NCBI GenBank assembly: GCA_951406725.2
Contig: OX597818.1
Span: 65,410,001-65,474,000 of the forward strand
Direction: 5' to 3'
From: Octopus vulgaris
Taxonomy: Eukaryota
Length of the DNA: 64,000 bases
Made by a program: the position numbers and the translations under genes
The notes under the pieces: model-generated
What the model saw: only the letters and a program-made list of their open reading frames with translations
The model's database searches: none
Told to the model about the DNA's origin: nothing
Shown: positions 13,642-63,560 of the stretch, in pieces
How the letters are laid out: each line of letters begins with the position of its first letter
Numbering within the stretch: position 1 is the stretch's first letter

Positions 13642-13870
13642 AGAATTTTTTGCGTAATAAGATAAAAAAAAGCAAGGCTGTATAGATATTAGAGCACTTT
13701 CTAGGTAGGTCTTACAGATGTTTCTAGGATATTAATTAGTAATATCCCTTCATCGGAGACGCGGGGATATTATTAATTGATATCCTAGAAACAGCTGTAA
13801 GAACTTCTATCTATAAATGCTCTAATATCTATACAGCCTTGGTTTTTTATCTCATTACGCAAAAAATTCT
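13642..13870. mobile_element. Palindromic Penelope-like element terminus (inverted pseudo-LTR) next to (TA)n
   Basis: ~105-bp inverted arms around ttcatcggagacgcg; a second copy of the left arm lies at 48483-49010; contains a hammerhead-like motif. Confidence 0.75.
13709..13760 (-). ncRNA. Type-I minimal hammerhead ribozyme-like motif (variant core CCGAUGA)
   Basis: gtct-CCGATGA-agggatatt actaatt aatatccta-GAAAC atct GT A-agac; the other arm retains palindromic stem III ACAGCTGT. Confidence 0.55.
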
Positions 13871-14689
13871 TATATACACACACTGACATAGAACTAAAGT
13901 TGAACTCATTATTCGCAATATTACCGAATCTGGAACTTAACTATGGTCTGTCTATAGCACATATTCAGCATTACCTGACACCTTTGGGTCTCAATGATAA
14001 CATTATCTCTATATATATATATATATATATATATATATATATATATCTTATATATATATATATATATATATATATATATATATATATATATATATATATA
14101 TATGTTTTAGACAACGGATTGGGGTGGCATTGACAACAAAACATTTGTGGAGTATATTTTAAAGCTTTGCCTATGTATGTAAGTACGTCTGTATATTCGT
14201 ATGCAATCTGAATTAACCAACTGCTGCGATAATTACGAACTGTTAATTGAATGGTAGATCTGTATTTTGGTACACCTCAGATCTATCACCTAATTGTTTT
14301 TTGTCAAGGGTTTCACGTTAAAAATTAAATATTTGTATGTAGTGGTGAATTTAAAATCTTGAAAACATGTTTTTTTTTACATATTCGGAATCTCCGTCGT
14401 CGAAAACATAAGAATGAGCTAAACAAACAAATAAATAAATAAATAAATAAAAATACATACAAAAAAACCTCAGAAGAATCGTATTGGGCAGGGTAATGTT
14501 CAAGAGCCAAAATTTAATCTCCATTGAGTAATGAAAAACCGTCATAGCGAATTTAGTATAGGTGAGTCAGCTTCCCAAACCACTGGGTCATTGCGCCTCC
14601 ACTATGTATGTATATATGTGTGTGTGTGAGTGGATGGCATATAACCTTATTTTTGTTCTATTCTAAAGAAAACTGTCCGCCGAGATGTA

Positions 14690-14960
14690 AGCAGAATACT
14701 ATCATCACGTGTGATGACCAGCTTTGTGATGTAGACATATAGCAACCAGCATCAGCTGTGAAGAAAATAACAATATAAAGGCACCAACAGCGACATATAC
14801 ACATACACACATTTTCTTTCTATGGACTTCACACATTATCCATCAATAAAATTTGATCACAATTCATTGGTCGTCCCGCGGTGAAAGCAGAAGACACTAG
14901 TAGAATTTTCAGTAAAGTGAGACTGAAACCGAAACCACGTAGTTACAAAAGAAGCACGGT
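14690..14960 (-). mobile_element. Old SINE family A copy
   Basis: accagcatc.., tcacaa..ttggtcg..agaagacact..gactgaaaccgaaaccacgt align to 18698-19110. Confidence 0.55.
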
Positions 14961-14994
14961 AAGGCTTGCATGCCTAATTACCTTTTAGGTGGTA

Positions 14995-15410
14995 AATCTC
15001 CAGGTAAACATTGACTGGACGGAAGACGCTTAACTCAGTAAAGGAAGTAGTGCTCAAAAGAACGCGAGATAATGCCATAGACGCCTGTTTCTTCAATAAC
15101 ACCGTACGTCATGCACTCTGATATCCTAGAGAGGCATGGGATGCTATGAAGAGGAGAGGACATGCATTGGCTGCGGTACAAATGACCACGGATTGAACTA
15201 TACTGAGCGAGACATTATTAAAGCTTACTTGCAATTCGCTAATGGGGCGGAGTGATCGAACAGTAGTGAAAGCACTAGATCCGTATGACCAGCCATGTCA
15301 CAAGGGTCAGAGACAATAGATGGAGCCATGTTAGTTGTCCAGTTGTATCCAAGTGAGAGGAAAACTACCACTTGAAAGGCAATGAAGACAACATTAGAAG
15401 TGCATTGTGA
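14995..15410 (+). mobile_element. RTE-clade LINE ORF C-terminal remnant
   Basis: Translates with frameshifts to ..FNNTVRHAL*YPREAW.. and TSHVTRVRDNRWS..VVQLYPSERK, matching the RTE pattern YG.ETW / WAGHV.R..D.RW...W.P...R. Confidence 0.65.
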
Positions 15411-17099
15411 CTAGCGATGTATGACAGCATCTGATGTGTGTCCGATACTGTAATATTGCATCACTCGCACACACGCAGTCACACAGGCATGCAGATGCAC
15501 CCATACGAATACACGCGAGCGTGCGTGTAAGACTGTGCCACAATCATGACATATTCCAACGTCATCCATAGACATCAGTCATTTATTTATTCATCTCTCT
15601 TATTTCCTCCAGCTTCATGCTATTTACCCAACACGCAAGGCTAATAGACATGCCTCTGTTCATCCCTACAAAGTGTATGCGTTCGACGGGCAAAAACCTG
15701 CGAGACCTTTACCTCCAATGGTAAAGCTGAGTTGGGCTTTACTAGATCTGTATACTGCTCGAAACAACGATCCCTTATTCTTGATAAAAATAGTGCATCA
15801 CCGAAAATAAGGGAACCAAAATTGATAATCACATTTTATCTCTCTTCACACATCTTAAACCAGTCTAAATTTATTTTATTAGTTTTATTATTAGCTTATC
15901 ATAAACATAGCGTCTAATTAGTTAAACCATATGTATGAACAGTCGTGGTACAATTATTTTGAATTCGTTTTGGTAGAGCTTTCATAAGTTAGCATTTATC
16001 CTCCTTATATGCTTTACATTTAATATATCTGCTGACTTTGACCTCATTGTGAAAGTCAACTTGTTCCATATCAGTGATAAATTCATTGAAAGCACCTCCG
16101 AATTGTAAATTAAACTTTGTCAAGCAGATTGTCTCCGAACAAATATAAATTCTCTGGTTTTAATTCTGTAATACTTGGTTTACCGGAACTTGTAAGGAGA
16201 TATACATTTTCCGCCGGACAACAATTCTGTTTAACATTTCCGAAATTCAGTCAACGAGACCATGTAAATGTTCAGGTCGTTACATCATAACATAATTTGT
16301 CCATGAATGGAATCGACGTATTTTCTCAAATTTCCTAAGTAAAGTGTTTATTCGCTCATAAATGTGAAATTATTTGTGAGACAGCATTGGTGCAATATGC
16401 ACAAATAGGATACACATCGGTGAAAAAATCAACAACAACAACATAAACACCTACCGATCCCAGGTGGAAGCACGTGAAAAAGTATCTTTCACCAAACAAA
16501 CCCAATAAGAATTTCAAAATTTATTCGATACAAATGTATCTCCCGATAGAAATGGCACCAAATTAGGATCAATAATCCATCTGTATATTATTTCTTGTTA
16601 ATCTATATTTTGTTTCTCAATTCACAGCAATATATTACTTTTTCAGTCGGGCGTTAATTGTTCGTAAAACATACACACACACACATACACACACACACAC
16701 ACACACACACACACACACATATATATATATATATATATATATATAGAGAGAGAGAGAGAGAGAGAGGGAGAAAGACCAGAGTAAGCGTATAAATGCGAAA
16801 CAAGTTGGAAAAATAGTACTCGAACACCAGGTAGTGTTATTTGCTTTATTAAAAAGCAGCAAAACACTAACGGTCTCTTCAATAACCGGTTGCATGGAAA
16901 AAACCGTTAGTCGAAAGGACCAATGAAACAAAACAATTTTAAATGTGTATCTATCAAACGAATTCCATATTTATGCATATAACCTTATTTTTGTTCTATT
17001 CTAAACATATATATATATATATATATATATATATATATATATATATATATATATATATATATATATATATATATATATATACATACTTACATACATACG

Positions 17100-17249
17100 T
17101 ACAATAGTAGAGATGGATGTCAACTTTGTTCTATGGAGACATATGAAATTTTGAAGCATAGGAATAATACAAACTTATTGAATAACCGTTCTGAACTGGG
17201 ATCATCTTGCATACACAGTGCTACCCGTACGTTTAAATATTTTAAATAA
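17100..17249 (+). pseudogene. C-terminal 49 aa of a Penelope-like GIY-YIG endonuclease (Naiad-like CxLC..E..I..LN.RSE..C.H ending)
   Basis: YNSRDGCQLCSMETYEILKHRNNTNLLNNRSELGSSCIHSATRTFKYFK*; the clade assignment is inference. Confidence 0.75.
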
Positions 17250-61734: not shown

Positions 61735-62157
61735 ATACATAGATGCACACACACGTACAGACATACCTACTACATATCTATAGACACATACACACACATA
61801 TGTATGTGTGTTAATGTTTGTGCGCGCGTGTGAGTGTGTGCGAAAAACCCATCAAAATGCATATGTATATAATTACGCACATAAATATATCCATATATAT
61901 TTATATATACATACATATATATATATATATATATATATATATATATATATATATATATATATATATATATATATATATATATATACATATATGTATATAT
62001 ACACATATATATATATATATATATATATATATATATATATATATATATATATATATATACATATATACATATATGTATATATACACATATATCTCTCTCT
62101 CTATATATATATACATATATACATATACATACACACAAATATACATATATACACATA
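61735..62157. repeat. Compound (TA)n/(CA)n microsatellite
   Basis: Directly visible. Confidence 0.95.
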
Positions 62158-62430
62158 CATGGGCCCGGTTTCCCGTTTTCTATGGCGTATGTGTTCTCCC
62201 ACCGCAGCTAGACTGGACGCAATTCCATCGCAGTGTTACTCAAGCAACAGGAAGAAAGTGTGAGAGAAAGTTGGGGTGAAAGACTACAACACGGGTCGTC
62301 ACGCCACGCGCCGGGGCCTCGTGGAGCTTTAGTTGTTTTCACTCAATAAATACAAACAGCCCGGTCTACGACTCGAAACCGCCATCCTCCGACCGCGAGT
62401 CCGCTGCGCTAACCACTGAGTCATTGCGTG
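62158..62430 (-). mobile_element. SINE family C
   Basis: ccggtttcccg..tgagagaaagttg..cgaccgcgagtccgctgcgctaaccact. Confidence 0.8.
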
Positions 62431-63134
62431 TATATATATATATATATATATATATATATATATATATATATATACTTCGAATGTATTAACCATGCAATTA
62501 TAAATACGAGTATTCTATATTTGTAGTAGATATATATTTTAACTCCATGCTACTCTTCCATATTTTTACACTTAAAAATGTAATCTTAATTCAAGTAGAA
62601 TGCTATATATTACACACGATTACAGTCACACACTCACACACACTCACACTCGAATATATCCATATGTGTATACATACAATTATTCATAATGCAAATATAT
62701 AATTATATAAAATTCATGGTCACGAGTGCTGAGACGTGTGTATTTGTCATTATATGTGTATATTTCAAGTTTTCTTCGTGCATGCTCGTACGGACGATAT
62801 GTCATATTTAGAAGAACATCTTACTTGCAGAGCTGCTGAAATTGTTCCATATTTATTCATTCATTTTAAAAGTTAAGTGTTGTGAGAAACGAGATGCAAC
62901 GTTCAATTATCTGAGTTTAATTGAATAAAATATTGGTGCAGAAATCTTCGATATATTCTATAATGTATTTAGATGGTCGTTCGAGAAAGGCTGCAGCAAA
63001 TAACACGTGATAAACTTCGAAAATACAGCAAAGAAAGTGTGAAAAATATCAACAACACTTCTGTAAAAATGTACGCGAAATATATTCTATAATGATTGAG
63101 ATATGGATAGAGTACGAAACTTCCTATTAGATAG

Positions 63135-63275
63135 GTGCAGGTGAGGCGGTGGCGTAAGAAGCTTCGCTTCCCAACCTGGTTCAGTCCTACTCAGTGATAT
63201 CTTGGGTAAATTGCCTCTACTGTAAGCAGGAGTCGACCAAATCCTTGTAAAGGAAACTGAGAAAAGCACGACGTT
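63135..63275 (+). mobile_element. SINE family A head fragment
   Basis: gtgcagg..gtaagaagcttcgcttcccaac..ggttcagtcc..cttggg..gaccaaa..ggaaactga. Confidence 0.6.
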
Positions 63276-63345
63276 TATACATTTATACATACATATATAT
63301 ATAAATATATATATATATATATATATATACATATATACAGGAAAG

Positions 63346-63560
63346 AATCGCCATGTTGAATCGCTAGCTTCTGCACGCATTTTCTCTCTCCTTGTTTCTC
63401 TCCGTGTTTCTTTTCTGTGTATCTTTCTGTTGAAGAGCGTAGGCTCGAAACGTAAAAGACTTGTTTTATTTATATTCCTGAGCGCCATACTAATACAATT
63501 GTTTGTTTTTACTCCACCTGCCTTCGTCTTTTGTTAATTTTCATAAAGCTTCCCGTTATA
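63346..63560 (+). mobile_element. Penelope-like terminus flanked by (TA)n (same family as 44369-44630)
   Basis: Homology to 44369-44590; ends cttcccgt|tatata. Confidence 0.75.
63422..63459 (+). ncRNA. Minimal hammerhead-like motif with variant core CUGUUGA
   Basis: tcttt-CTGTTGA-a gagc gtag gctc-GAAAC GT A-aaaga. Confidence 0.55.

Follow-up and report, generated by a model that had tools for sequence, protein, structure and literature searches.

The window analyzed here, 64 kb of the Octopus vulgaris genome (contig OX597818.1, positions 65,410,001 to 65,474,000 of the forward strand), contains ten hammerhead ribozyme motifs from eight families (A–G and I), some of them decayed. With high confidence, these motifs are the 5′-truncated 3′ ends (pseudo-long terminal repeats, pLTRs) of high-copy families, all of which have a minimal type I hammerhead and probably entered already existing (TA)n microsatellites by target-primed reverse transcription; families F, I and D are joined to open reading frames (ORFs) of Penelope-like elements (PLEs), and the rest are likely alike. 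All nine motifs listed by the original prediction, an earlier note made from the letters of this DNA, are present, none more than ~50 nt from where it had placed them. The arrangement is already described in the literature (PMC4209133, PMC8557442) and so is no new system: it consists of new members of known PLE clades and is real and ordinary. The host genome spans 2.8 Gb, and the window has ~34% G+C and a very high microsatellite content.

Copy number and conservation of the hammerhead families

Family sizes were taken as exact-pattern matches genome-wide, for which the reversed-pattern controls all returned 0. Family F gave 6,596 matches (15,703 with core positions 6 and 7 left free), followed by G (4,203), B (1,833), D (1,402), C (1,255), A (1,254) and I (1,147), and the narrow pattern used for E gave 75. 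As the patterns for A, B, C, E, G and I were placed outside the ribozyme, conservation of the core was not selected for in these families. The core is canonical in B, C, D, E and G, with CTGANGA in 19/23 scored copies of B, 13/15 of C, 14/23 of E and 17/18 of G; family A mostly has CCGATGA (12/19 scored copies), and family I has a U3-A8 core, TTGAAAA, in 14/17. The stems of family B also covary, with 21 cells showing two-sided changes compared to 8.4 ± 2.3 after shuffling and 0–3 in slid controls, figures that give no probability because the sequences are related. Families E and F have the same stem II and stem III design. By sequence, the core, three stems, NUH site and covariation of minimal type I hammerheads are all present, and the family alignments bear out the earlier claim that such hammerheads, with a palindromic stem III, reside in PLE ends.

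Junctions with (TA)n, inverted pairs and tails

Junctions and ORFs were sampled from each family's first 30 matches, which lie mostly on contig C1 (n = 240 loci). A TA run of at least 8 nt lay within 8 nt of the aligned 3′ end in 198/240 loci compared to 473 of 18,292 random positions (2.6%), as expected from the proposed landing of 3′ ends in (TA)n. TA was also found at the 5′ junction of 45 of the 156 non-inverted copies, an ~11-fold enrichment over the same background, so (TA)n was at least partly a pre-existing target; slippage may lengthen the arrays after insertion. At three loci (L099, L102 and L112), one TA run holds a stack of PLE ends from different families, B or C being inserted behind the 3′ end of a separate 781-aa Neptune-type family (below), which marks TA arrays as shared landing sites.

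Copies end 3′ at one or two set positions, followed by (TA)n; two discrete 3′ ends were found in each of families A, C, D, G and I, and the tails measure ~40–150 nt. The element sequence just past the short end, read from tailed copies and 5′ pLTRs, is TATATA in A, I, F and the 781-aa family and TAT-N-TATA-like in C, D and G; only 0.44% of element positions show a perfect alternation over 6 nt. At the distal 3′ end the TA match is short or absent. Judged from these sequences, the TA-like proximal end suggests priming by microhomology; alternatively, it could reflect the endonuclease cutting its own pLTR. A different origin of the repeats, in which the telomerase-related reverse transcriptase (RT) slips on its own TATATA and (TA)n is the product of the element and not its target, would fit both these short-end sequences and the far commoner occurrence of TA at 3′ than at 5′ junctions. 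A 3′ tail cannot, however, explain the enrichment at 5′ junctions, and a preference for insertion into (TA)n has been reported for Neptune, Hydra and Naiad elements (PMC8557442); we regard this origin as unlikely.

The inverted 5′ ends that had been noticed in the window were borne out, with 84/240 rows inverted. In head-to-head pairs, exactly one arm has a longer tail in 55 of the 68 classed rows (A 4/4, C 10/15, D 12/13, G 19/19 and I 10/17); inverted arms with an optional tail have been described for PLEs (PMC8557442, PMC3846280). Cleavage as the determinant of the 5′ ends of copies was rejected, since 5′ ends coincide with the predicted cut site in 8/180 copies and 145 copies span it. Uncleaved RNA is therefore the likely template, in agreement with in vitro work in which hammerhead cleavage was protein-assisted and dispensable for insertion (PMC11167929).

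ORF partners and PLE membership

The autonomous partners with RT and GIY-YIG domains implied by a PLE origin were found for families F, I and D. In family F, a sense-strand GIY-YIG endonuclease (EN) lies upstream in 6/30 loci, and the locus L267 contains a full-length element whose open ORF spans 1,079 aa; in it, RVT_1 was matched with an E value of 1.4e-7 (over the cut-off) and GIY-YIG weakly with 0.0065 (under it). This ORF contains ADKG, a CX4CxxC linker (CSRPRCRTC) and CCHH-type residues (FTC..CISC..EHL..RHF), and both pLTRs of the element have hammerheads, at 5131 and 9704, with U in place of A at core position 6 (A6U). Family I gave sense Neptune-type matches in 11/30 loci, one probably from another family, with the linker CGRPNCATC. 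By their linker and CCHH motifs, and by DKG in F, F and I appear to be Neptune-type, an assignment that does not separate Neptune from Nematis by a tree.

The ORFs of family D contain SDKT, YRDD, CGICNSE and RCLHW, with CxxC and CxH flanking E and N, no CCHH and RWL in the RWK position, and CxCX5C was not seen in their Asn-rich linker. The match of these motifs to the published description and to the alignment rows of Hydra-1_Obim points to the Hydra clade. A PDB search with the Hydra-type ORF returned no significant match. At C1:119.51–119.53 Mb, near-identical, D-related Hydra-clade units (L271/L272) stand head to tail 3.6 kb apart, each with a hammerhead; their open frames of 867–899 aa contain a linker rich in Asn and Ser that resembles the N-rich inserts known from rotifer PLEs (PMC3846280). 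Hydra-like EN was also found upstream at one locus each of A (L175), B (L212) and G (L255). ORF matches near A, B, D and G in antisense were not counted, nor were those behind C in L102 and L112, which are part of another element's end. F, I and D are thus firmly tied to PLEs, A, B and G tentatively so, and C and E are unlinked.

The separate 781-aa Neptune-type family (L119, L117 and L126) is young, with many intact ORFs, and ends in (TA)n. Tandem repeats lie in its 3′ untranslated region (UTR), the family has a weak U3-A8-like motif (TTGATAA), and the RT ORF is preceded by a long open frame.

Certain families, most of all C and E, could instead be non-autonomous retrozyme-like RNAs that are cut by the hammerhead, circularized and copied by a borrowed PLE enzyme. 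No ORF was found for either in 30 loci each, with 1.5 kb upstream covered, and retrozymes have been proposed to derive from PLEs (10.64898/2026.07.22.740005). Such RNAs are nevertheless hard to reconcile with the ragged 5′ ends, which do not lie at the cut site, and with the lack of short tandem arrays in the sampled loci; C has short and tailed ends and inverted pairs like the ORF-linked families, and the hammerhead design of E is common to F. Within the window, no hammerhead motif lay inside an array among the best 150 of 235 tandem-repeat rows. We consider this origin quite unlikely for any of the families, and the 'retrozyme-like' label of the original prediction fails, the copies being dispersed truncated ends of which several families join ORFs.

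Motif density and controls

The window was scanned with a relaxed type I hammerhead descriptor, with 40 block-wise dinucleotide shuffles as the control. At a score of at least 8, five matches were found compared to 0.3 ± 0.6 (maximum 2) in the shuffles, and at a score of at least 6 there were eight compared to 1.3 per shuffled window, so the motif counts that the original prediction had staked on such shuffles do exceed them. A strict version, which gave 1 window match at a score of at least 6, had been dropped as too narrow for minimal forms. Because the descriptor was relaxed after the motifs had been seen, the independent test was 600 kb of other DNA of the same genome (200 kb on the flanks of the window plus 40 pieces of 10 kb chosen arbitrarily). 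This sample gave 38 matches at a score of at least 8 compared to 2 in reversed DNA, and 58 compared to 4 at a score of at least 6. The descriptor missed the window motifs at 27171, 41965, 48949 and 32315. Motif density is ~1 per 6–8 kb in the window and ~1 per 11 kb in the 600-kb sample, and the window is therefore typical of the genome and no special locus.

The ~54 matches above control per 600 kb extrapolate to the order of 10^5 motifs genome-wide. An Rfam scan of the window showed no hammerhead family among the best 150 of 259 matches, those listed being microsatellite-driven microRNA and small nucleolar RNA noise. Folding z-scores of monomers were weak (−2.35 to +1.21) and uninformative for most motifs.

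About ten motifs in 64 kb might suggest that they are kept at this locus to cut host pre-mRNA, a role that we judge very improbable: similar densities occur in 600 kb elsewhere, motifs are found on either strand, the core is broken in several of the window copies, and minimal PLE hammerheads have been reported as inactive as monomers (PMC4209133) or without protein (PMC11167929). Contigs from sequencing runs over 44200–45500 and 14100–34000 had no end pile-up and no clear splice joints, although contigs cannot show ends or strand. A chance origin of the motifs in repetitive, AT-rich DNA is refuted, its likelihood being negligible: the shuffled-window matches under the relaxed descriptor and the weak z-scores are what it has in its favor, and against it stand the scan of independent DNA, families of thousands of copies with conserved cores, and covarying stems.

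Proposed mechanism and points against it

From the anatomy of the copies and the junction statistics, we infer nicking of (TA)n and internal initiation at two sites on uncleaved tandem RNA. The GIY-YIG domain, with its zinc-finger-like linker, would nick (TA)n, and the RT would start internally, downstream of the hammerhead, at either of two sites on a tandem transcript that has not been cleaved. At the proximal site, the nicked TA strand would likely pair with a short UA-rich stretch of the RNA. The RT would usually drop off after 100–400 nt, and priming of both target strands would yield the inverted pairs. The hammerhead would be copied because it is located just upstream of the start sites; its cleavage would be slow, in dimeric or protein-assisted form, and would not set the ends of the copies.

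Several observations weigh against the interpretation of the motifs as PLE ends inserted in this way. The only PLE studied in vitro starts reverse transcription at a site lacking homology with the cut DNA (PMC11167929), contrary to the microhomology step, and the one-tail rule is broken in 13 of the 68 inverted rows. A, B and G are each tied to an ORF by a single locus, C and E by none in the loci covered, and E is linked to PLEs only by its likeness to F. The Hydra-type ORF is not recognized by Pfam, and no ORF remnant was found upstream of any window copy. Finally, the sampled rows come from the 30 matches listed first for each family and mostly from one contig, and some represent both arms of a single insertion, which makes the counts non-independent.

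A family with U at core position 6

With positions 6 and 7 left free, T was found at position 6 in 96 of the first 100 family F matches listed, and position 7 among these was T in 41, A in 25, C in 19 and G in 11 (hand count). A second sample was collected by the downstream flank alone and comprised 30 copies (31 with the GAAA side and 15 further matches without it). In these flank-found copies, U6 occurs in 28/30, position 7 is free and 29 have a base other than G at position 17; identity is 88% in the core compared to 77% in the flank. A at core position 6 is thus absent as the family standard, and U6 predominates (CUGUNGA). A free N7 and a non-G N17 are the pattern of a constrained hammerhead. 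An alternative register, with the core UUGAAGA after a CUG bulge, was ruled out, as both the homology to E and the freely varying position 7 speak for the first register. The predicted fold of the F monomer is a rod, not expected to cleave, in which U6 pairs with A15.1.

In a natural hammerhead variant, A6C lowered activity, and U4C has also been reported (PMC3088659); A6U has 0 occurrences in the available portion of that paper. No report of A6U was found in the literature searched, which lay outside Lunse et al. 2017 on PLE hammerhead variants. Fixation of A6U with positions 7 and 17 free, and the TA-like proximal end, are details that may be new. For this Neptune-type lineage, with intact ORFs and more than 15,000 copies, U fixed at the normally invariant A6, with positions 7 and 17 varying just as they do in active ribozymes, may tentatively be read, at chances we would put a little below even, as marking either a natural hammerhead active only as a dimer or together with its protein, or a catalytically dead fold retained for another role, and TA-targeting clades may, unlike Poseidon, prime by UA/TA microhomology. 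If this is true, F and its sister family E, which has A6 and shares the genome, constitute a natural experiment on the purpose of PLE hammerheads; the F/E pair (U6 and A6 on the same stems) and the TA-like internal ends bear on hammerhead function and on priming at microsatellite targets.

Copies in the window

The hammerhead-bearing copies and related fragments of the window are as follows.

13641..14010, both strands: family A head-to-head inverted pair, (TA)n on each side (13583–13637 and 14010–14103)
18331..18671, + strand: family B 3′ end, canonical core CTGAAGA at 18454–18460, stem II long
26580..26697, no single strand: decayed inverted fragment, GAAA and stem III without a core
26956..27265, − strand: family C tailed 3′ end, core CTGAAGA at 27223–27217, (TA)n below 26956
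29366..29663, − strand: family D (putative Hydra clade) tailed 3′ end, canonical core CTGATGA at 29644–29638
32056..32452, both strands: family I (putative Neptune-type) inverted pair, (TA)n flanking both ends
41929..42100, + strand: family E 3′ end, decayed, (TA)n from 42100
44370..45092, − strand: family F (putative Neptune-type) 3′ UTR and pLTR, core CTGTTGA at 44501–44495 (A6U)
45094..45393, both strands: family G inverted pair, − arm core CTGAAGA at 45309–45303
48484..49031, − strand: second family A copy, decayed core CCGATTA at 48996–48990
63346..63557, + strand: second family F copy, core CTGTTGA at 63427–63433, TA on both sides

All eight 3′ junctions listed by the original prediction lie within ~5 nt of TA runs, the one at 48483 only across an insertion. 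In the family A pair, the − arm has the core CCGATGA at 13756–13750, a predicted cut after 13713 and a short end, and the + arm (13758–14010) has the tail and no core. The B copy has the stem III ACGATCGT, a predicted cut after 18531 and (TA)n from 18672. Stem III of the C copy is a 5-bp hairpin, ATTGG-A-CCAAT, and not the short palindrome that had been described at 27171. The D copy has the stem III ACATATGT, a predicted cut after 29572 and TA at both sides. Of two supposed half-cores, the one at 26592 is indeed decayed and without a core (the fragment at 26580..26697, with one relative, L084), whereas the one at 32223/32315 is the + arm of the I pair and a complete type I motif with the U3-A8 swap: UUGAAAA at 32300–32306, stem III ACCGGT, a predicted cut after 32324 and a short end. 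The − arm of this pair has a mutated core and a 40-nt tail.

The E copy has CTCACGA at 41969–41975 and GAAT compared to CTGACGA and GAAA in the family. The F copy at 44370..45092 has stem II GAGC/GCTC, stem III ACGT, a predicted cut after 44474 and (TA)n at 44354–44370, and the second F copy is predicted to be cut after 63454; their CTGTTGA (A6U), noted at 44469 and 63422, is a trait of the family and not decay. In the G pair, the − arm is tailed with a predicted cut after 45274, and the short + arm (45343–45393) runs into (TA)n. At 45090–45095 the tailed arm of G directly abuts the 5′-truncated F copy with no TA between them, possibly through nested insertion or template switching. The second A copy is split by a short interspersed element (SINE)-like insertion at ~48507–48917, and its 3′ end is near TA at 48483.

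A further hammerhead-like motif, overlooked earlier, lies on the − strand at 27703–27668, with a TTGAAAA core, a 10-nt palindromic stem III and a score of 8.3. It has no relative in the other DNA of this genome compared, and could represent either a ninth family of low copy number or a chance match. Downstream of the motif, a 44-nt segment occurs in opposite orientations, at 27277–27320 (+) and 27538–27581 (−), on the two sides of a microsatellite block at 27321–27537. SINE-like repeats of very high copy number were seen at ~48507–48917, 18700–19080 and 46000–46330, and frame fragments resembling the RT of long interspersed elements at 49520–49987 and 52802–53167 (+). A decayed stretch at ~42150–43270 (+) bears a possible resemblance to a Tc1/mariner-type transposase gene.

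Comparison with known systems

Minimal palindromic hammerheads, U3-A8 cores, inverted 5′ arms, tails and the (TA)n bias have all been published previously. The minimal hammerheads of metazoan PLE pLTRs (Cervera & de la Pena 2014, PMC4209133) are likewise type I, with an extra nucleotide between 9 and 10.1, a G10.1-C11.1 pair in several families, a palindromic stem III and the U3-A8 swap, and they occur mostly as single truncated copies or as opposite-strand pairs 100–700 bp apart. Family E fits their consensus, CUGANGAH...GAAAN-palindrome-NUH. The octopus families differ in the U at position 6 of F, which a CUGANGA descriptor would miss, in the U4C found in most copies of A and in the 50–60-nt stem II inserts of B and D. 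Non-LTR retrozymes (Cervera & de la Pena 2020, PMC7229834) also place type I hammerheads in animal repeats, but are short non-coding tandem units with canonical ribozymes, unlike the dispersed truncated ends of coding elements found here.

A bias toward (TA)n in Neptune, Hydra and Naiad elements was reported by Craig et al. (2021, PMC8557442), who list a hammerhead and (TA)n preference for Hydra-1_Obim of Octopus bimaculoides and call the function of PLE hammerheads unclear. Family D has in common with their Hydra-clade PLEs DKT, GLYRDD, CxxC/CxH around EN, a canonical hammerhead and insertion into (TA)n; it differs in a longer Asn-rich ORF of ~900 aa, in RWL for RWK and in having no clear CxCX5C linker, and Hydra-1_Obim is a different family with another hammerhead sequence. 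Like Neptune-type PLEs, which have a C-terminal GIY-YIG, a CX2-5CxxC linker and CCHH, F and I have the CX4CxxC linker and CCHH-type residues, DKG (seen for F), hammerhead pLTRs and a microsatellite bias; the A6U core of F and the U3-A8 core of I, with its 2-bp stem II, set them apart. The main text of a 2026 octopus repeat annotation, in the portion available, reports recently active Penelope families and makes no mention of hammerheads (PMC13282606).

Poseidon_Ac, as characterized in vitro (Frangieh et al. 2024, PMC11167929), resembles the present families in its two internal RT start sites that define a tail, its AT-rich targets, the priming of both strands and an uncleaved RNA template. Its start site is non-homologous to the target, whereas the proximal end here is a TA-like stretch of the element, and its tails measure 30–40 nt compared to ~40–150 nt here. 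Minimal hammerheads at PLE ends located in (TA)n have thus already been published, Octopus included, and the present analysis shows their scale in one genome.

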